The notes beneath the pieces were generated by a model. It searched no databases, was not told the origin of the DNA, and saw only the letters and a list, made by a program, of their open reading frames with translations. A stretch of DNA of 64,000 nucleotides from Patescibacteria group bacterium (GTDB taxonomy: Bacteria; Patescibacteriota; Minisyncoccia; Minisyncoccales; RBG-13-36-15): the NCBI GenBank assembly GCA_018609195.1, contig JAHCSE010000018.1, positions 4,750-68,749 of the forward strand. Reading direction: 5' to 3'. Numbering within the stretch: position 1 is the stretch's first letter; each line of letters opens with the position of its first letter. Positions 9,183-50,728 of the stretch are shown piece by piece. The translations under genes and the position numbers were made by a program.

Positions 9183-10532
9183 TTGAAGCAAATGAATATG
9201 ATTGCAAGGAACTCTAAAAGAAAACTTCTATTTATATCAAAAGAAAATCTAAGTGGCGATCTTGCATGGCAACTAAAACGCAACGGTCATGAGGTAAAAG
9301 CTTATATTGAAACAAAGGAGGATGTCGATGTTTATACTGGCTTCATTGAGAGAATAAAATCATGGAAACCTTATAAAAATTGGGCCGATGTCATAATATT
9401 TGATGATGTGGGCTTTGGAGAGATCGCTGATAGCCTTCGTAAACAAGGCAAGCTAGTAATAGGAGGTAGTAAATATACTGACAGATTAGAAAAAGATCGT
9501 AAGTTTGGTCAATTAGAACTCAAAAAATATGGGATAAACATACTGCCAAGTTGGCAGTTCTCTGATTATGATAAAGCCATGTGCTTTATTCGTAAAAATC
9601 CCATGCCCTATATATTCAAGCCAAGTAGTAATAGATTACAGGATGGTGAAAATAAAGAATACGAAAAAGATTTAATTGTTTTGGGAGAAGAAAAAAACGG
9701 CAAAGATCTTCTTGAATTTCTTGAACAAAACAAGATTATTTTACAAAAAAAATGTCCAACTTTTTTAATCCAGAAATTCGTAAGAGGAGTTGAAGTTGCA
9801 GTTGGGGCATTTTTCAACGGAAAAGAGTTTATTTACCCCATCAATATTAATTTTGAACACAAGAGATTTTTCCCCGGCAATATCGGTCCCTTTACGGGTG
9901 AAATGGGAACACTTATGTACTGGAGTTCATCGAATACTTTATTCCGTGCAACACTTAAACGTATGCTGCCCGCACTTAAGGAATCTGGTTATATAGGTTA
10001 TATCGATATTAATTGTATTGTGAATAATGAGGGAATATATCCACTTGAATTTACTTCTCGATTTGGATATCCCACAATTCAAATTCAACTTGAGGGGATA
10101 ACCACACCAACAGCAGAATGGTTATATCGCTTAGCGAGGGGAGAAAAATTTCAGATTCAGACAAAACGAGGTTTTCAGGTCGGTGTAGTAATTTTAGTGC
10201 CTTCATATTTCTCGTATTTTTTTGGAGGAAACAATCGAGAACTTATCAAAACATATAAAAATTTAACAATTATTTTTAAAAATTCATCTAATTTAGGAGG
10301 TGTTCATATTGGGGACGTGAAAAAAGATAAACAAGATGTTTGGCGTATTGCCGGAGGATCAGGTTGGCTTCTTGTTGTGACTGGAAGCGGTGTTACTGTA
10401 AAAAAAGCAAGACAGAAAACCCACAAACTAATAAGGGATATTAAAATTCCACATATGTTTTATCGTACTGATATAGGTAAAAATTGGAGAGTGGATAGTA
10501 AAAAACTTCGCACCTGGGGTTATATTAATTAA
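9183..10532 (+). CDS. ATP-grasp enzyme, phosphoribosylamine-glycine ligase (PurD)-like
   Basis: FEHKRFFPGNIGPFTGEMGT resembles the PurD (N)EHKR..GP.TGGMG motif within an ATP-grasp layout. Start codon uncertain. Confidence 0.55.
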   Translation: MKQMNMIARNSKRKLLFISKENLSGDLAWQLKRNGHEVKAYIETKEDVDVYTGFIERIKSWKPYKNWADVIIFDDVGFGEIADSLRKQGKLVIGGSKYTDRLEKDRKFGQLELKKYGINILPSWQFSDYDKAMCFIRKNPMPYIFKPSSNRLQDGENKEYEKDLIVLGEEKNGKDLLEFLEQNKIILQKKCPTFLIQKFVRGVEVAVGAFFNGKEFIYPININFEHKRFFPGNIGPFTGEMGTLMYWSSSNTLFRATLKRMLPALKESGYIGYIDINCIVNNEGIYPLEFTSRFGYPTIQIQLEGITTPTAEWLYRLARGEKFQIQTKRGFQVGVVILVPSYFSYFFGGNNRELIKTYKNLTIIFKNSSNLGGVHIGDVKKDKQDVWRIAGGSGWLLVVTGSGVTVKKARQKTHKLIRDIKIPHMFYRTDIGKNWRVDSKKLRTWGYIN

Positions 10533-10665: not shown

Positions 10666-10714
10666 GGGACGTAAAGTCCCCGTGGGGACCACGTCCCTTT
10701 ACGGGGCGTTTTTT
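10666..10714 (+). terminator. GC-rich hairpin(s) with T-run; two mutually exclusive pairings are possible
   Basis: GGGACGTaaaGTCCCCgtGGGGACcACGTCCC versus CCCCGT..ACGGGG + cgtttttt. Confidence 0.5.
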
Positions 10715-10717
10715 ATT

Positions 10718-10765
10718 CTGTCAAAAATTGCCAAAATTGACAGAGAAAAGATGAAAAGTTAAAAT
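10718..10765 (+). promoter_or_regulatory. promoter with palindrome over -35
   Basis: CTGTCAA..TTGACAG inverted repeat; TTGACA (10737-10742), 17 nt, TAAAAT (10760-10765). Confidence 0.5.
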
Positions 10766-10772
10766 AAAACAT

Positions 10773-10964
10773 ATGGATAAACTCTTAACCATAAAAGAAG
10801 TTGCCAAATATTTAAGAGTCAGCGAGCGTTCAGTCAACCGTTATATTGAATCTGGCCGGCTTAAAGCCTCCAAAATCGGCCAATGGAGAATCAAACAAAG
10901 CGATTTAGAAAAATTTTTAAAAGAAAACTCAAATGACAAAAGAAGGTTTAAGAAAAAGCTATAA
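10773..10964 (+). CDS. excisionase-family helix-turn-helix DNA-binding protein
   Basis: LTIKEVAKYLRVSERSVNRYIESGRLKASKIG matches the excisionase/MerR-like HTH pattern. Confidence 0.7.
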   Translation: MDKLLTIKEVAKYLRVSERSVNRYIESGRLKASKIGQWRIKQSDLEKFLKENSNDKRRFKKKL

Positions 10965-11631
10965 GATAAAAGATTTACCTAAAGTTGAAAGGCCGAGAGA
11001 GAAATTGATTTCAAAAGGCGCCCAAAACCTAAAAGATGAAGAACTTTTAGCTATTTTACTCCGGACCGGCAGGGAAGGTAAGAATGTTTTAGATTTGGCA
11101 AAACAAATTTTAAATAAATTTTCTAAAAAGAGGTTCTTTAAAATGAAATATGAAGATTTAATAAAGATTGATGGAATAGACCAATCTAAGGCTTGTACAA
11201 TTTTAGCCTCTCAGGAATTGATCCAAAGAGCGTTAAAGGTTAGAGACGAAAGTTTACCTCAAATCAAATCGATTCAAGATGTTTTAGCTCAAGCGGTTTA
11301 TATGAGAGATAAAACTCGTGAGCATTTAATGGCAATTTATCTTAATGCCAGAAATGAGATGGTTTACAAAAAGCCAATGTTTGTTGGCACACTTAATGCT
11401 AATCTTGTTCATCCTCGGGAAATTTTTAATGAAGCTCTGAAACAAAATGCAGCTTCAGTCATTCTAGTCCACAACCATCCTTCTGGAAATCCCGAACCTT
11501 CAGAAGACGATTTAGAAATTACCAAAAGGCTAATTGAAGCTGGTAAAATAATGGGCATTGATGTTTTAGACCACATAATTATTGCCAAAAACAAACCTCC
11601 TTTTAGTTTCAAAGAGAAAAAATTGATTTAA
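10933..11631 (+). CDS. radC: RadC-like JAB/MPN domain protein
   Basis: ERPREKL, ELLAILLRTG and HNHPSGNPEPSEDD (JAMM motif). Confidence 0.85.
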   Translation: MTKEGLRKSYKIKDLPKVERPREKLISKGAQNLKDEELLAILLRTGREGKNVLDLAKQILNKFSKKRFFKMKYEDLIKIDGIDQSKACTILASQELIQRALKVRDESLPQIKSIQDVLAQAVYMRDKTREHLMAIYLNARNEMVYKKPMFVGTLNANLVHPREIFNEALKQNAASVILVHNHPSGNPEPSEDDLEITKRLIEAGKIMGIDVLDHIIIAKNKPPFSFKEKKLI

Positions 11632-11635
11632 AATT

Positions 11636-13345
11636 ATGGCAAAGACTAATAAAAAATCAGAGGTTGAAAAATTGAAAGGCGAAGTTGATCGCCTGAAAAA
11701 GGAATTGAAGAAAAGGAAGAAATACGGCTTGGTTTGGGAAGAAAAACCTGAAGAAGTGGTTGAGATGTGCAAAGAAAAACTGCCAGTGCTAAAAGAAGTA
11801 AAAAATAAAGAAATAATCACCGACAAAGACAAGCCGGTAAATTTACTGATTGAAGGCGACAATTATCACGCCCTTTCAGTTTTGAATTATACCCACGCAA
11901 AAAAAGTTGATGTCATTTACATTGATCCACCGTATAACACCGGTAAGCCAAAGGAATTTAAATATAACGATAAGTGGGTAGATCTTAATGATGGGTATAG
12001 ACATAGTAAGTGGGTTGCTTTTATGGAAAAAAGGATGAAGCTGGCTAAAAATTTACTTAAAGATACTGGACTTATTTTTATTTCTATCGATGATAATGAG
12101 TTGGCCCAGTTGAAGTTGTTGATGGACAGACAGCCAGAATTATTTGGAGAAAATAATAAAATAGGAATTTTTACGATAGAGACTCCGAATCAAACCTCCG
12201 ATGTTAATAAAATAAAGAACTCCGATTTCTTATTAGTATATGGGAAAACATCACAAGCGGCGTTTAAGTTGTTATTTAAAAAACAGGTTGCGAGGTGTAC
12301 TACAGGAAAGGAGAACCAAACACAACCAATTATAGAATTCCCCAAGGGGTTAAAAGTGGTTGGTGTGTCAGATGGGATATATAAAGATACGAGAAAAACA
12401 AATGGTATGGAAGATATTTTTTTAATAAAAGGACCAATAATCGTAAGAAACGGGAAACTGGTTCAATCTATCAGATTAAAAGCCAGATGGGCCAATCCAA
12501 ATGATATGAAACGATTTATAAATAAATTTATCAGCAAAAGCAAGCATCCAATATTTAATAAATTTGGCAAAGAACTTTTAGATCTATATCTGCTAGGCGA
12601 TCGTTTTCAGCCACAAATGGTAAAGCGTGGCTTTGATATACCCCATACAATCTTGTTAGGATTTACTCAAAAAGGAGGAGATTTATTAAAAAATATTTTA
12701 CACAAAGAAACATTACAATATCCCAAGCACCCATCATTTATAAAATATTTATTAAGCATTTCAATAGACAAAAACTCCATCGTGTTAGATTTTATGGCTG
12801 GCTCTGGCACTACTGGCCATGCGGTTTTGGAACTTAATAAAGAAGATGATGGCAATCGCCAATTTATTCTTTGTACCAATAACGAAAACAATATTTGTAC
12901 CGATGTTTGTTATCCAAGGATTAAAAAAGTTATTAGAGGATACAAAAATTCGAAAGGGGAAAAGGTGGAAGGATTAGGCGGTAACCTAAAATATTTCAAA
13001 ACTAATTTTGTCGATGCTGAACCGACCGATAAAAATAAAATTAAACTTACACAGCAAGCTACGGAGATGCTTTGTATTAGAGAAGAAACTTTTGAAAAAG
13101 TTTTAGACAAAAAGGATTTTAAAATTTTCAAAAATAATAATCATTATACCGGCATAATTTTTGACCAATTAGCAATCCCAGGATTTAAAAAGACAATTAA
13201 AAACATCAAGGGTAAGTTTAGCGTCTATGTTTTTTCGCTAAGCGACGAAACTTTTGACGAAGAATTCGCTGATATTAAACAAAAAGTAAAATTATCTCCT
13301 ATACCAGAAGCGATTTTAAGGGTGTATAGGAGAATATTTAGATAG
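11636..13345 (+). CDS. mod: Type III-like (beta-class) N6-adenine/N4-cytosine DNA methyltransferase (Mod)
   Basis: DVIYIDPPYNTG (motif IV) precedes VLDFMAGSGTTGHA (motif I). Gene is 4 nt after radC and 4 nt before the next gene. Confidence 0.85.
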   Translation: MAKTNKKSEVEKLKGEVDRLKKELKKRKKYGLVWEEKPEEVVEMCKEKLPVLKEVKNKEIITDKDKPVNLLIEGDNYHALSVLNYTHAKKVDVIYIDPPYNTGKPKEFKYNDKWVDLNDGYRHSKWVAFMEKRMKLAKNLLKDTGLIFISIDDNELAQLKLLMDRQPELFGENNKIGIFTIETPNQTSDVNKIKNSDFLLVYGKTSQAAFKLLFKKQVARCTTGKENQTQPIIEFPKGLKVVGVSDGIYKDTRKTNGMEDIFLIKGPIIVRNGKLVQSIRLKARWANPNDMKRFINKFISKSKHPIFNKFGKELLDLYLLGDRFQPQMVKRGFDIPHTILLGFTQKGGDLLKNILHKETLQYPKHPSFIKYLLSISIDKNSIVLDFMAGSGTTGHAVLELNKEDDGNRQFILCTNNENNICTDVCYPRIKKVIRGYKNSKGEKVEGLGGNLKYFKTNFVDAEPTDKNKIKLTQQATEMLCIREETFEKVLDKKDFKIFKNNNHYTGIIFDQLAIPGFKKTIKNIKGKFSVYVFSLSDETFDEEFADIKQKVKLSPIPEAILRVYRRIFR

Positions 13346-13349
13346 AAAT

Positions 13350-16109
13350 ATGGCTAATCAAAGTCTATACCAAAGAGGATCGAAATGGAGAAAATGGGAT
13401 TTACAAATCCATTGCCCTGATGATGTTCTCAATAATCAGTTTAATGGTAAGACTTCCGATGAGAAATGGGAGAGTTATATTGCGAAAATAGAAAGAACAG
13501 ATTTAGAAGGTGTGGGGTTAACCAATTATTTTTGTATAAATGGGTACGAAAAAATTTTGAGTTATAAAAAGAAGGGTAGATTGGATAAGATAAAAATTAT
13601 TTTGTCAAATATAGAATTTCGGTTATCGCAGCCGAATCGTAGTGGAGAATACATAAATTTACATGTTATTTTTTCTGACTCGGTAAGTATAAAGAAAATT
13701 AAAGATTTTCTTGCTAGGCTTCCTATCATTGGCACGGATTCTAAAAATAGAAGTCTATTCTGTACAGAAAATGATTTACAGCAAATTGGTTATGATAAGG
13801 CACTAGTTGAATTTAGTGAATTACGAAAAAAATTAAAAGAAAACTTTGTTCATAGAAAAGATTATCTTATTGCTGGAGTTTCAAGAGGTTATGGTTCTTT
13901 TAGACCTTCACCGAATGAAGGTAGGGGAGCATCGTTAGCAATCGAAATTGATAAAATATCCGATTTCTTTTTTGGGAAAATAGAAGATGTTAACTTTTTT
14001 TTAGGTATTGGAAGATATAAAAATGCAAAGCCAAAACCAGTTGTACGAGTTTCTGATGCTCATAGACTAGAAAAGATTGGCTCTGAATTTTCTTGGATTA
14101 AAGCTGACCCCACTTTTGAAGGATTGAAACAAATAATTTACGAACCGGAATTAAGAACTTCTTTAGGAGAAAGACCAGAGCTTTACTTATATCCACAAAT
14201 TATTTCGGTTCAATTGAAAGGGGTCGAAAGATACCAAGGCCAACAGGACATCGAAGATTTCCCGCCTATAAATCTCGGAAAACAAATTTTTTTCAGCTCC
14301 AATTTAACAAATATTGTTGGTCCTCGGGCTTCTGGAAAAACTGTTCTTGTAGAATTACTTAATTATCCATTTAATCAACATCAAAAAGAGGCTAAAAAAG
14401 ATGAGAAATTACCTTTAATTCGCTTCTTATCAAAGAGATTCCCGGGTTTAACTGTTGAGATTTTATATCAGCAAGGAGAAAAAGAAATAGATGGAATAAA
14501 GAGAAAGATTGTTGATTTATTAGACCCGTTTTATACACCGCCTTTAACTATGGAATATTGGTCGCAAGGACAAATAGAGCAAGTGGCTAATAAAAAAGAG
14601 AAGTTAGATGAGTACATAAGAAATAGGTTAGAATCAACTCTTCTTTCGAACCTTTCTCTAAAAATTGATGAATTGAAAGAAAATCTAAAAAAATTGCGTG
14701 AAAAATATCTCCGTAAATTCGAGGTAGAGATTGAACAAAAGAAGCTTTTAGCAGAGAAAAAGCAAATTGAAGAATATTTTGAAAAACTAAAAACCAAAGA
14801 GTACAAAGATTTAATCAAGAAAATCAGAGAAAATAGGACAAACAGCCAACTTTTAGATACATTTATCGAAAATATTCAAACAATAATTAAATTTTTAGAA
14901 GAAGCCAATAAACAGTTTAGTTTTATAAGTCTTCCTGATAAGGGTGAACTTTTAAAATTATTTCCCAAGAGCCCTTCAACATCTCAAGAGATTGAGAATT
15001 TTTATAAATTTATTAAGAGTGATTTTGCAACTATCATTAAAAGATTTCCAAGGCTTCAACAGAACATCAGTAGTTCGGAAGAAAGAAAAAGATTAGCAAA
15101 AGAAGCTACGCTACTTAAAAAAGAGTTCCTTGCTTATTGTAAAAAACACGGAGTCAAGATTACACAATTAGAATATGAGAAACGGACAAAAAGATTAGAC
15201 GCTGTAAATCGCCAGTTAAGAGTATTAGAAGCTAAATTAAAGGAGTACGAAGCAGCAAAAGAAACACATAGTCAGTTTGCACAACAGCTTAATAGAAAAT
15301 TAGCCAAATGGGAAGAAGAAAATAATCGGATACTTAAGAAATTTAACAAACTGTCCTCAAAGACCAATGTCAGAGTAGTTTGGGATAACCCCTTTAAAAG
15401 ACTACCGGAATGGATAAAAAAACAATTTTTAGCTAGTGATTCAGTAGCCAAACCACTAATAAGAAAATATTTTTATATTTTCTCTCCTGTTAAAGAAAAT
15501 TTTATTGAAGAAATTGTAAAAGAATTAGTAGAAAGTAAGAAGTACTCGATAGAAAAGATTATTGAAAATTTGAACAATAAAGAACGACCGGCATTAGTGA
15601 AAAGTGGTGGAAAACAGGAAAATTTAAAATGGTTTTTTCAACGAGATGAAACAGAAATTATGCGCAAGGATTTAATTATGAGACTTCAAGAATATGCCGA
15701 GAGAGGAATTAATCTTATTCAATATAAAGGGAAAATTCTTGGTAAAGACAGCATGTCCTTCGGTGAACGCTGTGGTACTCTTATTGAACTTATTTTACAA
15801 TCAGGAGACCACCCACTTATTATTGATCAGCCTGAGGAACATCTTGACTCAAAGTTTATTGCAGACCGAGTTGTGAATATTATTAGAGGGCAAAAAATAA
15901 AGCGCCAAATAATCATATGTACACATAATGCAAATATTGTAGTATTGGGCGATTCAGAATTAGTTACAGTACTTTCTGCGGATAGACAGGGTACAGATGC
16001 CTATCAAGGTTCTTTGGAAAATTCAAAGCTTAGAAAGCAAATTTATGATGTTTTAGAAGGTGGTCCCGAGGCATTTAAGAAAAGAGAACAAAAATATGGT
16101 TTTAAATAA
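13350..16109 (+). CDS. PHP phosphoesterase domain fused to Rad50/SbcC-like coiled-coil ABC ATPase
   Basis: N-terminus has WDLQIHCPDD, NLHVIF and VSDAHRLE (PHP His/Asp motifs). Walker A GPRASGKT starts at aa 324. A long K/E-rich coiled-coil follows, then signature-like SFGERCG, Walker B LIIDQPEEHLD (D826) and H-loop CTHNANI. Confidence 0.75.
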   Translation: MANQSLYQRGSKWRKWDLQIHCPDDVLNNQFNGKTSDEKWESYIAKIERTDLEGVGLTNYFCINGYEKILSYKKKGRLDKIKIILSNIEFRLSQPNRSGEYINLHVIFSDSVSIKKIKDFLARLPIIGTDSKNRSLFCTENDLQQIGYDKALVEFSELRKKLKENFVHRKDYLIAGVSRGYGSFRPSPNEGRGASLAIEIDKISDFFFGKIEDVNFFLGIGRYKNAKPKPVVRVSDAHRLEKIGSEFSWIKADPTFEGLKQIIYEPELRTSLGERPELYLYPQIISVQLKGVERYQGQQDIEDFPPINLGKQIFFSSNLTNIVGPRASGKTVLVELLNYPFNQHQKEAKKDEKLPLIRFLSKRFPGLTVEILYQQGEKEIDGIKRKIVDLLDPFYTPPLTMEYWSQGQIEQVANKKEKLDEYIRNRLESTLLSNLSLKIDELKENLKKLREKYLRKFEVEIEQKKLLAEKKQIEEYFEKLKTKEYKDLIKKIRENRTNSQLLDTFIENIQTIIKFLEEANKQFSFISLPDKGELLKLFPKSPSTSQEIENFYKFIKSDFATIIKRFPRLQQNISSSEERKRLAKEATLLKKEFLAYCKKHGVKITQLEYEKRTKRLDAVNRQLRVLEAKLKEYEAAKETHSQFAQQLNRKLAKWEEENNRILKKFNKLSSKTNVRVVWDNPFKRLPEWIKKQFLASDSVAKPLIRKYFYIFSPVKENFIEEIVKELVESKKYSIEKIIENLNNKERPALVKSGGKQENLKWFFQRDETEIMRKDLIMRLQEYAERGINLIQYKGKILGKDSMSFGERCGTLIELILQSGDHPLIIDQPEEHLDSKFIADRVVNIIRGQKIKRQIIICTHNANIVVLGDSELVTVLSADRQGTDAYQGSLENSKLRKQIYDVLEGGPEAFKKREQKYGFK

Positions 16110-16123
16110 TTTTTAAATCGTTT

Positions 16124-18352
16124 ATGCGACTAAAAATTTATCAAGAAAACGCAATAGAGGAATTATTAGAGAAAGCCAAGAAACTTTTAGGTTATTCTGG
16201 CGAGAAAAAGCTTGTTTTTAAGGCGCCGACAGGTTCAGGAAAAACAATAATGATGGCAGAATTTTTGAAACAACTGGTTGATGATAGAGAAATAAGGCAA
16301 AACCTTACTTTTATTTGGACGGCGCCAAGACAACTCCATATTCAAAGTAGAGCTAAGTTAGAAAATTATTTTGAAGAAAGCCGAGCGTTAAAATGCTCAT
16401 ATTTTGAGGATTTAGATGACAGGAAAATCGGCGAGAATGAAACTTTGTTTTTTAATTGGGAGAGCATAAACAGAGCTGATAATGTCTATATTCGCGATAA
16501 TGAGCAGGATTTTAATTTATCCAAAGTACTGGAAAGAACGAAAGAAGAGGGTAGAGAAATAATCTTGATTATTGATGAAGCCCATCATCACGCAACAAGC
16601 GAAATTTCTCAAGGATTGATTCAGATGATTGGACCAAAGTTGACGATTGATGTTTCCGCAACGCCGGCTATCATTGATCCTGACGCCGAAAAAGTAAATG
16701 TTCATTTGGAAGAAGTAAAAAGGGAAGGAATGATTAAAAAGGCAGTGGTCTTGAATGAAGAGTTTGTCAATCTTTTGAAAAGAGGAAAGATCGAATCTGA
16801 TTTAAGTGGCAGTAGTGAAGAATTGGTTATTGATGCGGCATTGAAAAAACAAAAAGGATTATTAAAAGCATTTCAAAAAGAGAAGGCAAAAATTAATCCA
16901 TTAATTTTGATTCAACTTCCAGACAGGATTGGACAGCTTGAAGATATAATGAAAGATAGGGTGATTAGAATTTTAAAAGATAAATATAAAATCTCAATCG
17001 AAAATGGCAAGTTAGCAATTTGGCTTTCAGGAGAACATATTAATAAAGAAGATGTTGAGAAAAATGACAGCGAAGTAGAGGTTTTAATTTTCAAGCAGGC
17101 GATTGCTTTAGGTTGGGATTGCCCTCGCGCGCAGATTTTAGTTTTGTTTAGACAATGGCACAGCCCAATATTTTCTATTCAAACAGTGGGTAGAATTATG
17201 AGAATGCCGGAACCAATAAAAGGACATTATGAAAATGATATTTTGAACTACAGCTATGTATATACCAACTTGAGCGATATAGAAATTAAAGAAGATATTG
17301 CTCGCGATTATATTACTATTTACACAAGCAAGAGACGACCTGATTATAAGCCAATAAATTTACTATCTTGTTATTCAAAACGATATCGTGAGAAAACAAG
17401 ATTATCGCCGCTTTTTATAGAGTTGTTTTTGAAGGAGACGAAAAGTTATGGGCTAAAAAAGAAAATAGATACGAAGGCGAAGAAATTGAATATAAAGGTT
17501 TTTAATGATTGGAAAGCTGAAAATATTGATTTATTAGCGGGGAAAACAATCGCTGGCGATAAAGCAATTAAAGTAAGTGGGTTTGATCTACAGAGATTGT
17601 TTGATTTTTTTGTAAGAAATAGTTTGAGAGAGGGCTCTGTTTCATTTTATCCAGAAGACAGGTCGGTTGGTCGTGTTAAAGAAGCAATTTATAAATTTTT
17701 TGAAACAGAATTCAAAATGAAGCGAGGCGAGGGAGAAGATGAGACCGCTCAGATTGTTTTAAGCGATAAAAATATTCAACAATTTGTTAATGTAATTGAT
17801 AAGACTAAAGAAGAATATCAGAAGGAAGTAGTTAAACGCGAACCAGAAATTATTCCTCTTGAAAATTGGGACATGCCAGAATCTTTAACTTTTGGTAGTG
17901 ATTATAAAAAAGAGGAGAGAAAAAAGAGTGTAATGCAGCCGTTTTACAGTGATAATAGATGGAAAACAGAAAAAGTATTCATTGAGTTTTTGGAAAAATC
18001 AGAGAATATTGAATGGTGGTTTAAAAATGGGGATCGAGACAAAATATTTTTCGCTGTGTCATATGATAATGGCGAGCAAAAACCTTTTTACGTTGATTTT
18101 ATCGTTAAGATAAAAGACGGAAGGATTGGCTTATTTGATACCAAGACGGGAATTACATTGCGAGATGCTAAACCGAAAATTGATGGTTTGTATAAGTATA
18201 TTCGAACGCAAAACAAAAAAGGCAAAAAACTTTTTGGTGGCATAGTTACTAACACTGACCAAAGAAATTATCGCGGAAGATGGATTTATTTTGATAAAAA
18301 TTCTAAAGAATTAAGAAACAATTTCAGTAACTGGCAAATTTTAGAATTATAA
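16124..18352 (+). CDS. res: Type III restriction enzyme Res-like helicase-nuclease
   Basis: FKAPTGSGKT (motif I) and IIDEAHH (motif II). C-terminal FYVDFIV..GLFDTKTG is PD-(D/E)XK-like. Confidence 0.8.
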   Translation: MRLKIYQENAIEELLEKAKKLLGYSGEKKLVFKAPTGSGKTIMMAEFLKQLVDDREIRQNLTFIWTAPRQLHIQSRAKLENYFEESRALKCSYFEDLDDRKIGENETLFFNWESINRADNVYIRDNEQDFNLSKVLERTKEEGREIILIIDEAHHHATSEISQGLIQMIGPKLTIDVSATPAIIDPDAEKVNVHLEEVKREGMIKKAVVLNEEFVNLLKRGKIESDLSGSSEELVIDAALKKQKGLLKAFQKEKAKINPLILIQLPDRIGQLEDIMKDRVIRILKDKYKISIENGKLAIWLSGEHINKEDVEKNDSEVEVLIFKQAIALGWDCPRAQILVLFRQWHSPIFSIQTVGRIMRMPEPIKGHYENDILNYSYVYTNLSDIEIKEDIARDYITIYTSKRRPDYKPINLLSCYSKRYREKTRLSPLFIELFLKETKSYGLKKKIDTKAKKLNIKVFNDWKAENIDLLAGKTIAGDKAIKVSGFDLQRLFDFFVRNSLREGSVSFYPEDRSVGRVKEAIYKFFETEFKMKRGEGEDETAQIVLSDKNIQQFVNVIDKTKEEYQKEVVKREPEIIPLENWDMPESLTFGSDYKKEERKKSVMQPFYSDNRWKTEKVFIEFLEKSENIEWWFKNGDRDKIFFAVSYDNGEQKPFYVDFIVKIKDGRIGLFDTKTGITLRDAKPKIDGLYKYIRTQNKKGKKLFGGIVTNTDQRNYRGRWIYFDKNSKELRNNFSNWQILEL

Positions 18353-18453: not shown

Positions 18454-18888
18454 ATGGCAAAATCAAATCACAATGCCAAGGGATGGCCTCGAGATAGCTA
18501 CACCGGCCCCGGCGGCGGACTATATACCGACCCAGGGGGAGGGCTTTATACCGGTCCTGGCGGCGGAGCGTATACTGGACCCGGCGGCGGTCTTTACACA
18601 GGGCCTGGAGGAGGTTTGTACACTGGGCCAGGTGGCGGATTATATACCGGACCGGGTGGTGGCCTCTACACTGGCCCCGGTGGTGGATTATCTACGGGTC
18701 CGGGAGGAAGTCTTTATACAGGCCCAGGTGGAGGGCTGTACACTGGACCCGGTGGGGGTCTTTATACTGGACCATGCGAAGAACCTTACTATAGCAATTG
18801 GCCGCCTAGGGAAGTTTTTCTCAAACACTTAAAGGAGCTTGGTATGGATGATATATACCAGCTTCTCAAAGATAGTTGGGGTTTATAA
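18454..18888 (+). CDS. Gly/Tyr-rich octapeptide-repeat protein with small alpha-helical C-terminal domain
   Basis: 15-aa head, 11.5 x (Y-T-G-P-G-G-G-L), 37-aa tail CEEPYYSNWPPREVFLKHLKELGMDDIYQLLKDSWGL. The repeat peptide is conserved only in this frame. Confidence 0.6.
   Translation: MAKSNHNAKGWPRDSYTGPGGGLYTDPGGGLYTGPGGGAYTGPGGGLYTGPGGGLYTGPGGGLYTGPGGGLYTGPGGGLSTGPGGSLYTGPGGGLYTGPGGGLYTGPCEEPYYSNWPPREVFLKHLKELGMDDIYQLLKDSWGL
18499..18774 (+). repeat. 11.5 tandem 24-nt repeats (coding)
   Basis: Units differ mostly at third codon positions (e.g. ggc/ggt/gga/ggg, ctt/ttg/tta/ctc/ctg). Confidence 0.9.
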
Positions 18889-19251: not shown

Positions 19252-19884
19252 ATGTTAGTTTTTATTGACGAGTCTGGAGATCCAGGATTAAAAATAGAAA
19301 AAGGATCTAGTCGATATTTCACGGTATCGTTGGTTATATTTGAGGAGAGAGATGAGGCCTTGGCTTGCGATCAGAGAATCAATCTTTTGAGAAAAGAATT
19401 AGGCTGGGAGCCAAATAGCGAATTCCATTTTAAAAGAAACTCCGATAAGGTAAGGCGGGCTTTTTTACAGGCGGTGGCTCCATATAATTTTTTCTATTAT
19501 GGAATTGTTATTAATAAAGACCCCAAAAAGCTTTGGGGTGAGGGTTTTAGAGATAAAAAATCTTTTTATAAATATACTTGTGGTTTAGTATTTGAAAATG
19601 CAAAAGAGAAGTTAGAAAGCGCAATCATCATAATTGATAAAAGCGGAAATTTAGATTTTAGAAGACAGTTGGCAAAATATTTACGAAAGAGAATGAATGA
19701 AAGAGATAAGAAATTAATTAGAAAAGTAAAAATGCAACGATCGAGTGGGAATAATTTATTGCAGTTAGCGGATTATGTTGCGGGTGTGATAAATAGATCT
19801 ATCCAAAAAGGGAAGAAATATGCAGAGGAATACAGAAAAATCATAGCGCATAGAGAAATTTATGTTCAAATTTGGCCAAAATAA
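19252..19884 (+). CDS. DUF3800 domain protein
   Basis: MLVFIDESGDPG N-terminus and C-terminal LLQLADYVAG, typical of DUF3800. Confidence 0.8.
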   Translation: MLVFIDESGDPGLKIEKGSSRYFTVSLVIFEERDEALACDQRINLLRKELGWEPNSEFHFKRNSDKVRRAFLQAVAPYNFFYYGIVINKDPKKLWGEGFRDKKSFYKYTCGLVFENAKEKLESAIIIIDKSGNLDFRRQLAKYLRKRMNERDKKLIRKVKMQRSSGNNLLQLADYVAGVINRSIQKGKKYAEEYRKIIAHREIYVQIWPK

Positions 19885-45680: not shown

Positions 45681-46439
45681 TCATTCTTGCGGAAATACAG
45701 CCTTCAAATCTGCCCGTGCGCTTTCTAACTCTGATTTAAAATCTTCAATTGCTTTTTTGATTGCTTCTCTTCTCGCAGCAATAAGCGTCTCCTTCGGAGT
45801 CTTTAGTTTCTCAATCTCTTGCCGATCGCTTGCAAGCTTTTCTCGAGCTGCTCTCAGATCGGCGCGCAAATTCTCGCGGGCAGTTCTTGGATCGACGCCG
45901 TTTTCACAATCAGAAGTAGCTTTTCCAAAAGCAGATTGAATGGAATTTCTAAAGGTACTGACCACTGTATCAACAGACAATTTGTGTGAAGCAATCGCTT
46001 CTTTTACGCCTTCACGAAAATCCTGAATTGCTTCATCAATTGCAGCCCGACGAGTTGCTATTGACGCATTAATTGTTTCTTTAAACGCCACTACTGCCTG
46101 TTGTTGTTCATCAGTTTGTGCCCTTTCTTCCAACTTTGCAAAATGTTCAGCGCGATTGGCATCCCATTTCGCTCTCTTCTCTAAAATCCTTGCATCACGC
46201 TCACCCTGGCGTGTCTCAATCCTATTAGCTATCTCCGTACGTTTAGCTTCCAGCCTTGAATCACGATTGGCAATTCTCTGGTCAATATTTGAAGAAAGTG
46301 TTGAAAGTCGCGCACAGTAACCTTTTGCCTTCTCCTCGGCATTATCATGACCAGCAAAAATCAGAACGGGTACCAAAATACCCATTATTATTGCCGCCCC
46401 AAGTCCAGTTGTAAATATTTTTCTAGAGTTCACTTTCAT
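45681..46439 (-). CDS. hypothetical secreted all-alpha (A/R/E-rich) protein
   Basis: Signal anchor FTTGLGAAIIMGILVPVLIFAG followed by repetitive helical sequence. GC higher than the genome background. Confidence 0.5.
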   Translation of the reverse strand: MKVNSRKIFTTGLGAAIIMGILVPVLIFAGHDNAEEKAKGYCARLSTLSSNIDQRIANRDSRLEAKRTEIANRIETRQGERDARILEKRAKWDANRAEHFAKLEERAQTDEQQQAVVAFKETINASIATRRAAIDEAIQDFREGVKEAIASHKLSVDTVVSTFRNSIQSAFGKATSDCENGVDPRTARENLRADLRAAREKLASDRQEIEKLKTPKETLIAARREAIKKAIEDFKSELESARADLKAVFPQE

Positions 46440-46725
46440 TGATGGATTGACCAAAATCACCAACCTCTTGACTATCGGTGGTTATTAATGCTGCATCATT
46501 CTCTCCTTCTGTAAGTACTGCCCCTTCATCAAGTAATTCTTTCAGTAAAGCATCTACTACATCATCAATGTTACCGGTTGCAGGAGGCGGAACAATTTCC
46601 TCCTCCTCTATCGGGCTTATTGGCGAGGGTTTTGGCGCAGGGGAATAAAAAGCAAAAATGGCAACAAGCACCGCTACCACGATTACCACAATCACGAGAG
46701 CTATTACCTTATTCTGCGTTGTCAT
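46423..46725 (-). CDS. hypothetical membrane-anchored acidic protein
   Basis: N-terminal TM VIALVIVVIVVAVLVAIFAF and an acidic C-terminus. Confidence 0.45.
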   Translation of the reverse strand: MTTQNKVIALVIVVIVVAVLVAIFAFYSPAPKPSPISPIEEEEIVPPPATGNIDDVVDALLKELLDEGAVLTEGENDAALITTDSQEVGDFGQSINESEL

Positions 46726-46937
46726 AAGATTGTGAATTTGATTTGTTATGTTAATAACAAAGATTCGACCTTTTTGAACACCTTTCTATAATGGCTAATT
46801 TCGTTATTTGAGGTGCTCCTATTTTATCAATTCTAGCAAAAAACTTCTCCTTTGTCGATTGTTATCTAAAAAAAAGACCCCCAGGCATTGCATTGATGCT
46901 TTGCCTGAGGGCTCAGAAAGGGGGGAAATCGGCTGGG

Positions 46938-47162
46938 TTAGTCGTGGTCTGCGATCCATCTTTGAAGCTGGGCGATCCGTTCTAGGACCTGGACGTGACA
47001 GGTCCCGATTGCCTTGATTTCTCCGAACTCCTGCGGGGACATCCCGAGCCCAAGGGCCTCCTTTTCGAGGAACCAGAGTTCCTCTTCTGGAGTACGCTGC
47101 GTCTCAGCCGGTACCTCCCGAACCGGTGCTTTCCTAACCGGTGCCTCCACAGTCAATACCAT
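46938..47162 (-). CDS. 74-aa protein in GC-rich mini-island
   Basis: AAGGAGGT RBS 7 nt upstream of ATG. Own TTGACA-17-TAGAGT promoter (about 47196-47224). Long terminator hairpin at 46868-46915. Confidence 0.5.
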   Translation of the reverse strand: MVLTVEAPVRKAPVREVPAETQRTPEEELWFLEKEALGLGMSPQEFGEIKAIGTCHVQVLERIAQLQRWIADHD

Positions 47163-47238
47163 CTCGACACCTCCTTTCTTTTGAACTAATGCTACTCTAT
47201 CAAATTATCAACAAAATGTCAATTTAAATATTGTGTGC

Positions 47239-48138
47239 TTATCCGGCGACACACGCATTAAACGCCTTGGCTTGATTATTGTATTCAATAACGAGCACTT
47301 GAGTCGCTTCAGAAAGATTATTATATTGAAAAACTAAAGCATTGTACTCCTCAACCTTTCTATTGTATCTAGGCCCCCATTTGGGGCGTGCCCTTTGCAG
47401 TTCCCGTTTCTTTACAGCTAACTCTTTCTCAAGTTCTTGAAGTTGAGTCGCGTTACTCTCAATCTGCGCTTTTAACGATTCATCTAATTCTGGGCATGCG
47501 GATATGGGCAGGCCGAATTCTTGAACCGCAACCCAGGTCGACTTCCCCTCAAAAACACCTTTTGCTACTCCAACCCCTATTTCTGCATAGCGAGAATTTA
47601 GGATATTAGCCCTATGTCCAGGGCTATCCATCCAGGCTCGTATCAAGGTTTTATCATCCTCAAAATTACCGAGTGCTAAATTTTCACCAATTGCAATGAA
47701 TTGATACCCGACACTTTCAGCCAAATCTCCAGCATCAACGCCTGATGGTGAAACATGAGCAAAATATTGTTTCTCAAACATATCCTGCATCTTGAGGGCA
47801 GCAGCGATATTCAGTTGTTTATCTTCTGTTAATTGTAAGAATCCCTGAGCGCTTCTCTGAACGTTGGTCCAGGTAATTATTCCAGATTGAGTGAGAAAAG
47901 AGTCGGGAACTTCTTTTGCTGCCCGAAGGGGTGGGGGAGAAGAAATGTCTTTGCTGATTTTTTCAATCGTAAATTCTGATGGCACTTCTTGAACTAACTG
48001 TTCAATTTTCGAAAACTGAGGAAAAAGACGCAGAATATCCGCCCAGAAAAAATACAAAACCAAAAAAACAAGAACTAAAACTAAAATATATTTAAGATTT
48101 TTTATACTTAGATGCGTGTAGATATTTAACATCTGCAC
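47239..48138 (-). CDS. CAP (SCP/PR-1-like) domain secreted protein
   Basis: YFAHVSPSG, GENLA and WMDSPGHRANIL motifs. Confidence 0.75.
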   Translation of the reverse strand: MQMLNIYTHLSIKNLKYILVLVLVFLVLYFFWADILRLFPQFSKIEQLVQEVPSEFTIEKISKDISSPPPLRAAKEVPDSFLTQSGIITWTNVQRSAQGFLQLTEDKQLNIAAALKMQDMFEKQYFAHVSPSGVDAGDLAESVGYQFIAIGENLALGNFEDDKTLIRAWMDSPGHRANILNSRYAEIGVGVAKGVFEGKSTWVAVQEFGLPISACPELDESLKAQIESNATQLQELEKELAVKKRELQRARPKWGPRYNRKVEEYNALVFQYNNLSEATQVLVIEYNNQAKAFNACVAG

Positions 48139-48146
48139 AGGTAAAA

Positions 48147-48878
48147 TTATTTGCCGAAAAGTTCGAGGGCGAAAGCGTAGGCAGCCATTACCTCTCCTTC
48201 GGTGAGTTCCATTCCATTGGCACCTCTGAACATCAAGCGGTTTATTGATTCGTCGGTATGGGAAAGCGAAAGAAGATGGCCTATCTCGTGGGCTGTGGCC
48301 CGAAAATCATACACGGTTGTAAAATCAGCAACAGCTAAGCTTTTGATACCAGAAAAAGCAATGCCATTGATGCCGCCAAGGCTTCGTACCAAAAATAAAT
48401 TAAAGGACGTTCGGTCAAATTGGGGAATATCCTTTGCCAAAAGACTAGGTGTTTTGAAAAATTGAGAAATAGTCTCGTCACTCGTCTCAATTGAATAAAC
48501 GACTCTGATAGAAAGGGTGATATCGGCCTGGGCCCAAATACGCGAAGCATTCTCAACAAGCAGTACAATATTTGCTGCGTCTCTTTGGCTTCCAAGATTC
48601 CCTGTATTTCGAAAAACAATGATATTAAGTGGCACTACGATTTTTTCAGCCTCTAGTATGCTTTGAAGCTCCTTTTCTTTTATTGGAGGGGTCTTTCGAT
48701 AAAAAAAAGCCTGACGCCCCCCAGACAACCAAAGCAAACCAAGGATCACCATTATAGCAACGCCTGTTAAGAGTAAGGTTTGCCAAATTGGCCTTGGCTT
48801 TTGCTCTTCAATATATTCTTCTTCCGGCAGAATATCATTAAAGTCTGGGTCTAATCCTTTTTTGTTTTCTTTTTCCAT
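48147..48878 (-). CDS. membrane-anchored zinc metalloprotease (HExxHxxxxxH)
   Basis: AHEIGHLLSLSH motif; N-terminal TM helix. Confidence 0.65.
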   Translation of the reverse strand: MEKENKKGLDPDFNDILPEEEYIEEQKPRPIWQTLLLTGVAIMVILGLLWLSGGRQAFFYRKTPPIKEKELQSILEAEKIVVPLNIIVFRNTGNLGSQRDAANIVLLVENASRIWAQADITLSIRVVYSIETSDETISQFFKTPSLLAKDIPQFDRTSFNLFLVRSLGGINGIAFSGIKSLAVADFTTVYDFRATAHEIGHLLSLSHTDESINRLMFRGANGMELTEGEVMAAYAFALELFGK

Positions 48879-48884
48879 CTTCTC

Positions 48885-48920
48885 ATCTTATCAAAAAATC
48901 GCCTTTAAGGCGATTTTTTG
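48885..48920 (-). terminator. hairpin + extended -10 (TGATAAGAT) module
   Basis: Minus strand: aaaaaatcgccttaaaggcgattttttgataagat. Confidence 0.55.
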
Positions 48921-48991
48921 GTTATTCTTACGACTCCACTCTTTACAGACTTATGACACCGGGTCTTCAACGGTGCTTGTAACAAGGAGGT

Positions 48992-50728
48992 TCATGTGGG
49001 TTGTTGTTGTTCGATTATTTCTTTGACTTTTTGACTTATCGGCAAAGTAAGGAAAAAGGTTGATCCCGCGCCCTCTTTGGATTCAAACCATATCTTCCCT
49101 TTATGTCCCACAATGACATTTTTTGCGATATACAGGCTCAGTCCCGTCCCTTCCGTGTTAAGCCGCATGGCAAGATTCCCTCGGAAGAATTTCTGAAAAA
49201 TCTTATCCCGTTCATTATCTGGAATTCCAACCCCTGTATCAGATATAGCAATCTCAACTGCATCACCAACTTTTCTAATACGAAGTTCAACTCTTCCTTT
49301 GGGGTATGTGTACCAAAAGGCGTTATCGAGAATACCATAGAGAACAACCCCGATTTTCACTTTATCCATATCTACTTCAGGAAGCTTGGCTTCGATTTGC
49401 ACACTAAAATTGATCTTTTTTGACTCAAATCGCTTTATAAAACTCTTTGCGGTCTCTTCAACAACCCACCGAGGAATAACTCGAGAGAATTGATATCCGA
49501 ATTTTCCTTCTTCGATACTTACTGCATCTAGCAGCTCACTGATCAACTTTGTCAACCGATCCACTGATCCAAATCCCTGGCCAACGGCACTTTTCTGCTC
49601 AGGAGATAGATGATCTAATGATCCAGCTAATAATTCACTGAAGAGCCACTTCATTTCTGAAAGGGGCGTGCGGATCTTATGAGAAGCAATTTTCACAAAA
49701 CTTGATCGCATTTTATCGATCTCCTTCTCTCGAGTGATATCATGTAAGACAATGATGTATCCAGCCTCCTTTTTGTCCTGAAGAAGAGGTATTTTGGTAA
49801 TCCCGAGGATACGCTCGCGGTCGTATTGATCGGCAACAGATATTTCATATTTCTCAAGCGGTTGAGGCGCTCGAGAAAATTCTGAAATTTTCTCGAGGTT
49901 AAGATGAGAAAAGTGGGCAGAGATCTTCTTCCCGAGGATTTCTTCACTGGAAAGATCAAGAAGTTCTCGGGCTCGAGGATTGACGAATACAACCTGCTCC
50001 TCCTCGTTAATCAAAAAGAGGCCGTCAGTAAGATTCTCAATGAGCGCACGGAGGTGATTACGTTCATTACGAAGCCTGCTGCGCCCAGTTCGAATGCTTC
50101 GGACAAACAGTCCTCCGTGATACCCGATATAAACCAGCAGAACTAAACTTAACGGAAGAAAGATCGCGAGGTATTGAGGATTCTGGAAAAAGCCGGCATC
50201 CAATGAAACAATCGGCGTAGGAACAATGATACGAAAATATTCAAGCAAGGTTGTAGCGAAAAGGAAAACAATGGTCTCAGTAATAAGAACCGACACTTGC
50301 CACAGATACGGCAAATATCGAAAAGCAGACACGATATACAGCGGAAAAACGAAGAGTCCTCCGACGCTGTAACTCCCGGACAAAAAAACTAACGGGATAA
50401 CAACAGCTGCATCAACAAGCAAAAAAACCGTGTACACTATACTCAATCTTCTAAAATTCTGGAGATACGACAAAGGAAAAATTAATAAATAAAAAAAGGC
50501 TGTATAGAAAAAAAGCCAACCGAAGAGTAAGAAAGCGGCTGTTGGGATATGGACTTGAAAAATAGGAGGAATAACAAATGCAAGAATTGTAATGATTAAG
50601 CTCACTACCATTCTAGAACGAGAGTCGCTTGCAAGAACATTACGTAATGCTTGAAGCTCTTCTGCTTCTTGGATCCTTTCAAAGTAGGAATTCCTCCGCC
50701 TCTTTTGTGTAAAAATATTGATGGGCAT
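48992..50728 (-). CDS. membrane sensor histidine kinase with PAS domain
   Basis: Multi-TM N-terminus, PAS-like region, H-box ASHKIRTPL, N-box, G-boxes DTGVGI / GTGLSL. Confidence 0.85.
   Translation of the reverse strand: MPINIFTQKRRRNSYFERIQEAEELQALRNVLASDSRSRMVVSLIITILAFVIPPIFQVHIPTAAFLLFGWLFFYTAFFYLLIFPLSYLQNFRRLSIVYTVFLLVDAAVVIPLVFLSGSYSVGGLFVFPLYIVSAFRYLPYLWQVSVLITETIVFLFATTLLEYFRIIVPTPIVSLDAGFFQNPQYLAIFLPLSLVLLVYIGYHGGLFVRSIRTGRSRLRNERNHLRALIENLTDGLFLINEEEQVVFVNPRARELLDLSSEEILGKKISAHFSHLNLEKISEFSRAPQPLEKYEISVADQYDRERILGITKIPLLQDKKEAGYIIVLHDITREKEIDKMRSSFVKIASHKIRTPLSEMKWLFSELLAGSLDHLSPEQKSAVGQGFGSVDRLTKLISELLDAVSIEEGKFGYQFSRVIPRWVVEETAKSFIKRFESKKINFSVQIEAKLPEVDMDKVKIGVVLYGILDNAFWYTYPKGRVELRIRKVGDAVEIAISDTGVGIPDNERDKIFQKFFRGNLAMRLNTEGTGLSLYIAKNVIVGHKGKIWFESKEGAGSTFFLTLPISQKVKEIIEQQQPT

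Follow-up and report, generated by a model that had tools for sequence, protein, structure and literature searches.

A TrlF-family PHP-ATPase gene located between mod and res of a Type III restriction-modification operon in a Patescibacteria group bacterium

The TrlF family takes its name from the temperature-restriction locus trlF-trlG-trlR of Photorhabdus laumondii, in which TrlF was annotated as a histidinol phosphatase and the temperature-tolerant mutations all fell in trlG (PMC7554251). Its sole characterised relative is Ppl, which confers protection against T7 and is itself counteracted by Bas63 gp130 (PMC11482910). As far as a review's summary and the title of a paper tell, Ppl is a single-stranded DNA (ssDNA) 3'-5' exonuclease that is inhibited by nucleoside triphosphates (NTPs) and senses endonuclease-generated 3'-OH ends. 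PrrC and RloC are precedents for ABC-ATPase nucleases that are embedded in or beside restriction-modification (R-M) loci as a second line of defence. Here we describe a TrlF-family gene, trlF (positions 13350..16109, + strand), in a stretch of 64,000 nucleotides (nt) of contig JAHCSE010000018.1 from a Patescibacteria group bacterium, referred to below as the window. The gene lies between mod and res of a Type III R-M operon.

Ppl, the only TrlF relative to have been studied, was characterised very recently; it was reportedly introduced by Gao et al. in 2020 as a single-gene anti-phage system, and the primary paper on it is said to be that of Xu et al. in Mol Cell, 2026. The window gene compares with these systems as follows. 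The open reading frame (ORF) 13350..16109 is genuine, and its product of 919 amino acids (aa) is a member of the TrlF family, with a PHP domain and an SMC-like ABC ATPase. The NCBIfam model NF045780 (TrlF family AAA-like ATPase) matched it end to end (protein residues 9-917, model positions 1-944) with 464.5 bits against a cutoff of 350, so that the link to TrlF which a sequence-only reading of the window had suggested held over the full length. The link to Ppl suggested in the same reading was right as well, with Ppl the more distant relative: on profile scores the protein is a Ppl homologue, though one outside the Ppl family, with 110.7 bits (E = 5e-32) for NCBIfam NF042955, below its cutoff of 1000, and 94.1 bits (E = 1.5e-27) for the PADLOC Ppl profile, the best stretch being positions 441-888 of 894, in the C-terminal half. 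The related PHP-ATPase family Spaf_1101 of NCBIfam scored 127.7 bits (cutoff 475).

The Pfam searches for PHP and SMC_N that the sequence-only reading had proposed gave weak matches or none. PF02811 (PHP) did not match residues 1-300 even at E <= 10, SMC_N reached 31.1 bits, under its gathering score of 40, and PHP_C was the sole PHP-related Pfam match (13.9 bits, E = 0.039). PF02811 was found by profile search in many homologues, and the fold assignments are based on these matches together with the full-length NCBIfam match and Foldseek. Since the ATPase is of the ABC/SMC type, the "AAA-like" of the family name is a misnomer. No anticodon-nuclease family of Pfam, NCBIfam or PADLOC matched the protein, and a PADLOC scan for known multi-gene systems returned only the Type III methyltransferase and restriction enzyme and the weak Ppl match, with mad8 and PDC-M01A marginal.

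The slot between mod and res

The trlF gene is the fourth of five genes in a tightly packed run on the + strand, which encodes HTH_17, RadC, Mod, TrlF and Res; the gaps between RadC and Mod, Mod and TrlF, and TrlF and Res are 4, 4 and 14 nt, respectively. The Type III methyltransferase Mod (11636..13345, +, 569 aa) was recognised by PADLOC MTase_III (280.9 bits) and Pfam N6_N4_Mtase. It carries DPPY at aa 97 ahead of F-x-G-x-G, which is the beta-class order, and a variable central target-recognition region at about nt 12120-12735. The Type III-like Res (16124..18352, +, 742 aa) was recognised by Pfam ResIII (E = 8.6e-22) and PADLOC REase_III and has C-terminal similarity to NCBIfam BPTD_3080. 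Its superfamily 2 (SF2) helicase motifs are GSGKT (aa 37), DEAH (151) and SAT (178), and at motif level a PD-(D/E)xK-like site is suggested near the C-terminus (D658...D674-T-K676, nt 18095-18151). From the mod stop to the res start there are 2,778 nt in the window, unlike the adjacent or overlapping arrangement of mod and res.

More than 120 proteins from Omnitrophota, Paceibacterota, Nitrospira and other metagenome-assembled genomes are 74-83% identical to the window Res, well above the best TrlF homologue, at 56-69%. What lies between mod and res differs among the related operons. In L176 (Res 80% identical) the order is RadC, Mod, a CBASS cyclase (373 bits, full length), a 2TM effector (261 bits) and Res. 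In L175 (Res 81%) Mod and Res enclose an RmrA-like M78 peptidase (78 bits) and a DUF4411 protein, which form a RosmerTA-like pair. The order in L179-L188 (Res 74%), whose Res protein appears in 79 blocks of the collection, is HTH, RadC, Mod, an Old nuclease (194 bits) and Res, and in L174 (Res 83%) a PDC-M48B-like MBL protein and a 209-aa protein follow the C-terminus of Mod and precede Res. The slot is empty in L177, L189, L191, L192 and L178 (Res 63%, 58%, 37%, 35% and 35% identical, respectively), where Mod abuts or overlaps Res. The five distinct relatives obtained from IMG/VR all had an empty slot.

Nucleotide comparison by blastn of the window with the occupied loci placed the borders of this segment. 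Homology extends through the N-terminus of Mod, is lost over about 12120-12735, returns and continues up to 13344-13355 (the mod stop is at 13345), is absent over the whole of trlF, and resumes at 16122-16123 (the res ATG is at 16124) to run to the res stop. The left junction (13346..13349, +) is accordingly the 4 nt from the mod stop to the trlF ATG, and the right junction (16110..16123, +) the 14 nt from the trlF stop to the res ATG; these end and resumption points hold for L174, L175, L176 and L179. In the junction alignment a conserved Mod C-terminus (LSPIPEAILRVYRRIFR, then the stop) and a conserved Res N-terminus (MxLKIYQE...) flank unrelated sequence. The cargo genes begin 2-7 nt past the mod stop, with the exception of L175 (47 nt). 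The slot is exactly the interval from the mod stop to the res start, and its defence cargo is interchangeable.

The GC content of the cargo is similar to that of the flanks. No meaningful direct or inverted repeats were found flanking the cassette, no tRNA gene is present in the window, no integrase, tRNA or flanking repeat is present at the slot, and the junction alignment contains no conserved sequence beyond the coding flanks. In the literature searched we found no description of cargo between a Type III mod and res. A 2025 review of R-M systems names PrrC as an accessory gene lying within an R-M locus but says nothing of PHP-domain proteins.

At a single, precisely bounded site, TrlF takes the place that CBASS, Old or RosmerTA-like systems have in other operons, and the slot therefore provides positional evidence for TrlF as a defence module. 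It also means that a Type III R-M operon can bear variable cargo between mod and res, and it yields a search rule, by which genes between a conserved mod and res of this Res family are candidate defence systems, uncharacterised ones included. One such case is L174 (slot at 414-1908), in which a 304-aa MBL-fold protein (PDC-M48B-like, 68 bits) stands beside the 209-aa protein, which has no clear family; the position of the two genes makes them a candidate new defence system. The protein by itself would be ordinary to moderately interesting, and for specialists the main point is a bounded, variably loaded Type III slot.

A broader form of this idea, which we put forward tentatively, is that the HTH-RadC-Mod-[X]-Res family as a whole serves specifically as a mobile vehicle for defence cassettes, with the mod-res gap as exchange site. 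Recombination in the conserved flanks would exchange the cassettes, the slot would accept any defence module, and a loaded module would be co-expressed with the R-M genes and retained by R-M addiction. TrlF, which among divergent lineages is the commonest occupant of Type III operons, would also be triggered by the DNA ends that restriction makes. If true, R-M loci would have a new organising principle, and new defence genes, the L174 pair among them, could be located by position.

Distribution of the TrlF family and its proposed role

The loci of TrlF relatives (80 genome and 79 metagenome loci, plus individual contigs) were fetched and de-replicated at 90% identity, which left 90 usable loci. 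The closest relative, L089, has the same Mod-TrlF-Res order, and its TrlF, Mod and Res are 69%, 58% and 70% identical to those of the window. This order is found also in L083/P0005, L173/P0033, L104, L113 and L152. Variants of it are Mod-TrlF-TrlG-like-Res in L144, TrlF-x-Res in L108 and L110, Mod-Res-TrlF in L005 and L062, and TrlF ahead of Mod in L042 and L075; in L086 and L006 TrlF follows a Type II R-M pair. A strong Mod- or Res-like gene lies within three genes of trlF in 17 of the 90 loci (19%), mostly of Type III, with L086 of Type II. Such strong Mod- or Res-like genes account for 23 of the 354 genes at offsets of +/-1-2 but for only 2 of the 557 that lie at offsets of >=5 (odds ratio 19, p = 3e-8), and the enrichment is sharpest at an offset of +/-1. 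About 80% of the TrlF loci have no such R-M gene nearby.

The three proteins do not share one history. In a mirror-tree (Mantel) test of 10 Mod/TrlF/Res triplets, Mod and Res co-diverged (rho 0.37, p = 0.004), and no co-divergence of TrlF was found with either Mod (rho -0.05) or Res (rho -0.03). In the same way, the TrlFs of the window and L083 are 55% identical, with flanking Mod and Res proteins that are nearly unrelated. Given that Mod and Res co-diverge and TrlF does not follow them, a co-evolved third R-M subunit was rejected.

Elsewhere, trlF genes stand alone on IncF and Pantoea plasmids, lie inside a Tn3-like element in Fluviispira, or have CBASS, Mrr, AbiE, GmrSD or AAA_15 genes as neighbours. 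The family occurs on 1,114 plasmid records, mostly of Escherichia and Klebsiella, of which 805 are predicted to be conjugative. The plasmid genes are usually stand-alone and near resistance and colicin genes (e.g., NC_014382.1, pEC_B24, 46426-49107). The family is almost absent from phages (7 of 50,697 phage records).

Several further arrangements were noted among these loci. A TrlG-like gene (SLFN_AlbA_2 and HATPase_c_4 domains) follows trlF in L144 (6986-14754), L108 (6908-14604) and L081 (7694-11581). In L144 and L108 the TrlF-TrlG-like pair is directly upstream of the Type III Res, and this connects genes of the "temperature restriction locus" with R-M operons. In Helicobacter pylori CP094135.1 (L170, 5659-9622), a TrlF homologue and a DUF2130 gene form a pair between housekeeping genes, and DUF2130 was seen once more among the downstream neighbours in the genome census. 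The Mod of the Mod-TrlF-Res operon in L173 (4872-6998; TrlF 43% identical) bears an additional GIY-YIG nuclease domain. In P0064 (810 aa, from a JGI contig of 8.9 kb), residues 5-404 correspond to the N-terminal half of TrlF (47% identity) and residues 585-790 to residues 10-216 of the window Mod (62%). This protein has no ATPase C-lobe and probably arose by deletion or rearrangement of a locus with TrlF followed by Mod, so it was not used as a Rosetta-stone fusion of Mod and TrlF.

With moderate confidence, we interpret the window TrlF as an autonomous, Ppl-like, nucleotide-regulated nuclease-ATPase that serves as a second defence layer and travels as cargo between the mod and res genes of a mobile Type III operon. 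Its autonomy is suggested by the stand-alone genes on IncF and Pantoea plasmids, the Tn3-like context, the 1,114 plasmid records and the near absence from phages. We infer a defence function, nuclease activity, regulation by ATP or NTPs and a benefit of the slot. The N-terminal PHP domain, a metal-dependent phosphoesterase and the likely nuclease effector, would act in fusion with the SMC/Rad50-type ABC ATPase. By homology with Ppl, TrlF would work alone as a nucleotide-regulated nuclease that senses DNA ends, and would add a second layer against phages or plasmids. It would not be a subunit of the restriction enzyme and would ride as cargo in a widely spread HTH-RadC-Mod-[X]-Res operon, where it would be transcribed and horizontally transferred together with the R-M genes and would probably be stabilised by R-M addiction.

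Several points weigh against this interpretation. The phenotype of the founding locus mapped to trlG, and no role of trlF was shown there (PMC7554251). In the literature, in which only the Photorhabdus paper surfaced, we found a measured activity for no TrlF. The nuclease competence of the window protein is uncertain because Q19 and N59 replace canonical residues of the PHP site. The sample of slots is small, with six distinct occupied operons (five cargo types) against five empty ones. Lastly, the short gaps (4 and 14 nt), and the fact that Type III operons of very divergent lineages have repeatedly taken up TrlF in particular, could indicate a functional link rather than carriage.

Such a link would mean that TrlF is wired to the restriction enzyme, which we consider rather unlikely. 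TrlF might bind and degrade the DNA ends created by Res and so block repair or recombinational rescue of the cut phage DNA; alternatively, it might be a latent back-up effector set free by phage inhibition of the Type III enzyme, in the way that inhibition of EcoprrI releases PrrC. Besides the tight spacing, this wiring would fit the recurrence of Mod-TrlF-Res with TrlFs only 27-55% identical (L083, L173, L104, L113 and L152, and L144 with TrlG), the sharp maximum of the enrichment at adjacent genes, the Type II pairs next to trlF in L086 and L006, and the precedents of PrrC and RloC. The reported trigger of Ppl, endonuclease-generated 3'-OH ends, would fit as well, as far as the summary cited above goes. 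However, TrlF does not co-diverge with Mod or Res, and the same slot carries mechanistically unrelated systems, such as CBASS, Old and RosmerTA-like pairs, so that the position does not require a link specific to TrlF. The roughly 80% of TrlF loci without a nearby R-M gene and the many stand-alone plasmid copies also argue against it.

Architecture of the TrlF protein

An AlphaFold2 model of the whole protein, built on an alignment of 46 sequences, reached a pLDDT of 86.8 and a pTM of 0.70, and a separate model of residues 1-300 reached 87.2 and 0.86, respectively. The PHP-fold domain (13374..14159, +; aa 9-270) is followed by the N-lobe of the ATPase head (14187..14594, +; aa 280-415), an antiparallel coiled-coil hairpin (14595..15353, +), an extra helical insert (15390..15689, +; aa 681-780 in the AlphaFold2 model) and the C-lobe of the head (15702..16106, +; aa 785-919). 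That a PHP domain and a Rad50/SbcC-like ATPase are joined in one polypeptide, as the sequence-only reading had proposed, was borne out by NCBIfam, AlphaFold2 and Foldseek, and every motif it had quoted lies where it had placed it. Its further claim, a split ATPase head fused to a nuclease-type domain other than Mre11, agrees with Foldseek on both halves. That reading did not include the embedding between mod and res, the non-canonical PHP site, the hook- and hinge-less apex or the misnomer in the family name.

The ATPase has the full set of ABC motifs, with its lobes split by the coiled coil. The N-lobe contains Walker A GPRASGKT (aa 324-331, nt 14319-14342) and the Q-loop (Q406), and the C-lobe contains the signature MSFGER (aa 802-807, nt 15753-15770), Walker B with the catalytic Glu, HPLIIDQPE (aa 821-829, nt 15810-15836; D826, E829), the D-loop EHLDS and the H-loop IICTHNA (aa 855-861, nt 15912-15932). 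Across the 46 aligned homologues no variation occurs at G324, G329, K330, Q406, G805, D826, E829 or the D-loop residues L832 and D833, and almost none at S803. The best Foldseek match of the ATPase part was 5xei, an SMC head with coiled coil (E = 4e-10), and JetC, MukB, Rad50, LmuB, AriA and RecF were further matches in the PDB. A profile search of PDB sequences found Smc (7e-12) and Rad50 (2e-9) and no solved PHP-ATPase fusion.

The helical spacer between the lobes is genuine, but the true coiled coil comprises about 250 aa and not the 450 aa first estimated for it. The expected antiparallel hairpin was modelled with two arms of about 110-125 residues each (aa 416-524 and 542-668), which meet at a 17-residue apex (aa 525-541, FISLPDKGELLKLFPKS), and alignment to the Smc head with coiled coil 5xei delimited the hairpin as well. 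Heptad (3.5-residue) periodicity is present in the long helices (z = 3.5-5.5 against shuffles) and, by the same comparison, was found neither in the PHP and head domains nor in the insert at 681-780. The apex has neither a zinc hook (CxxC) nor a hinge, and residues 500-560 contain no Cys.

For the N-terminal domain, the top 24 Foldseek matches were all PHP-fold proteins, with TM0559 (2anu_A; E = 6.3e-7, TMt 0.61) the best and with PHP domains of Pol III alpha, RNase AM and PsfC among the others. Motif I is WDLQIH, within WDLQIHCPDD (aa 16-25), with D17, Q19 and H21; motif II is LTNYF, with N59 and Y60; E89 and H105, the latter in NLHVIF (aa 103-108), follow; and motif IV is SDAH, inside VSDAH (aa 234-238), with D236 and H238. 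The norm of the family at the seven core metal-ligand or active-site positions is D17, H19, H21, D59, E89, D236 and H238. The window protein thus deviates at two of the seven, having Q19 for His and N59 for Asp, and keeps H21, E89, H105, D236 and H238.

These substitutions raise a further reading, namely that the PHP domain is catalytically impaired in the window copy and that the protein is mainly an SMC-like ATPase, acting for instance as a DNA sensor, clamp or regulator, or is decaying. Clearly degenerate members do exist (DQY..DG in L152, DQY..DR in L003 and L156, AQ-..DE in L081), and 7 of the 11 Q19-type loci with known context, the window counted, are R-M-embedded, which is suggestive, although this count was made post hoc and the loci are phylogenetically clustered. 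Against this, motif I is DHH in 99 and DQH in 17 of 120 homologues, and the DQH proteins, which keep H21, E89, D236 and H238, are spread over 32-56% identity to the window TrlF, a pattern that speaks for a maintained functional variant over random decay. R-M embedding was also considered as a cause of PHP degeneracy and looked plausible in the raw table, but in the de-replicated loci non-canonical ligands were not significantly associated with it (4/17 versus 12/73, p = 0.49). In addition, the ORF is intact, and none of the ATPase motifs deviates. We regard an impaired PHP domain as improbable.

The PHP domain also has a different history from the rest of the protein. Compared with L089, the PHP domain is 27% identical and the ATPase, coiled coil and insert 85-92%; compared with P0002/P0005, the PHP domain is 71-72% identical and the ATPase, coiled coil and insert 38-52% (C-lobe 72-75%). 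These opposite patterns of identity show that the PHP module of the window TrlF has been exchanged by recombination. Such a swap points to a design with a sensor chassis and an exchangeable effector, and makes the window protein a new mosaic member of a named, uncharacterised family.

A housekeeping role in DNA repair, like that of SbcCD/Mre11-Rad50 and without any part in defence, would suit the SMC/Rad50-like head and coiled coil joined to a nuclease-type domain and the automatic RefSeq GO term "double-strand break repair" on a plasmid homologue, but is highly improbable given the patchy and mobile distribution (plasmids, transposons, and defence islands by CBASS, Mrr, AbiE, GmrSD and R-M genes), the positional interchange with bona fide defence systems, the absence of a zinc hook or hinge and the anti-phage function of Ppl, the nearest characterised relative.

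Neighbouring genes and comparison with described systems

The operon is opened by a gene for a 63-aa HTH_17 protein of the MerR/excisionase type (10773..10964, +; Pfam E = 3.9e-19), a putative operon regulator, and an HTH gene is also the first in the related operons L179, L177 and L087. It is followed by a gene for a RadC-like JAB-domain protein of 232 aa (10933..11631, +; Pfam RadC E = 1e-43, NCBIfam RadC 240.6 bits). RadC precedes Mod in L176 and L179-L188 too, often behind a small HTH gene, and the nucleotide homology to these loci begins within the 3' part of the window radC. A sigma-70-like sequence, TTGACA-17-TAAAAT (11/12; 10737..10765, +), may mark the start of the operon; it is a consensus match only, and the total of promoter-like matches in the region is not above the expectation from shuffles. 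A terminator-like hairpin (10691-10709) lies just upstream of it. Neither trlG (AlbA_2 and HATPase_c_4) nor trlR was found in the window by Pfam and NCBIfam scans.

Upstream of the operon, a PurD-like ATP-grasp ORF (9183-10532, +; 101.5 bits against a purD cutoff of 288) may not be PurD; it shares the low GC content (0.34) of the R-M element. Just past Res, an ORF of 144 aa (18454-18888, +) contains about 12 tandem YTGPGGGL octapeptides, encoded by 24-nt repeats at 18499-18810; it matches no family, and the local GC content rises to 0.42-0.44. This Gly-rich repeat ORF was rejected as part of the unit, as it is not conserved in the related loci. A DUF3800 protein (19252-19884, +), a match to the PADLOC candidate PDC-M04A (E = 7e-9), is a possible further defence gene beside the operon.

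Among described proteins, the TrlF of Photorhabdus is a collinear, full-length match with the same architecture of PHP and ABC ATPase. The settings differ: the founding gene belongs to trlF-trlG-trlR, whereas the window gene belongs to a Type III R-M operon without trlG and trlR. Ppl is likewise a single polypeptide with PHP and ATPase domains and detectable homology. However, the window protein scores far under the Ppl cutoff and has Gln as the first residue of the PHP HxH motif, and Ppl is stand-alone, whereas the window gene is embedded in an operon with gaps of 4 and 14 nt.

Rad50/SbcC and the SMC proteins JetC, MukB and LmuB share the ABC head split by an antiparallel coiled coil and gave the best structural and profile matches. 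Unlike them, the window protein has arms of only about 110-125 residues and an apex without zinc hook or hinge, carries an insert of 100 aa, helical and ahead of the C-lobe, that is not found in canonical SMC/Rad50 heads, and has its nuclease-type domain as a fused PHP and not as a separate Mre11/SbcD or Toprim partner.

PrrC and RloC resemble the window TrlF as an ABC ATPase with a nuclease at an R-M locus, and RloC also has a Rad50-like coiled coil. In these proteins, however, a C-terminal tRNA anticodon nuclease follows the ATPase, whereas in the window protein an N-terminal PHP domain precedes it. PrrC resides in Type IC loci and is silenced by its own R-M enzyme, whereas the host of the window gene is a Type III operon. 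No specific coupling to the R-M enzyme is evident for the window TrlF, and its lack of co-divergence argues weakly against a specific interface.

The slot as a whole resembles the defence hotspots of E. coli (36/37) and of P2/P4 in having fixed, conserved flanks around interchangeable defence cargo. The difference is that the flanks in the window are two genes of a single R-M operon, and that the borders of the slot fall at the mod stop codon and the res start codon.

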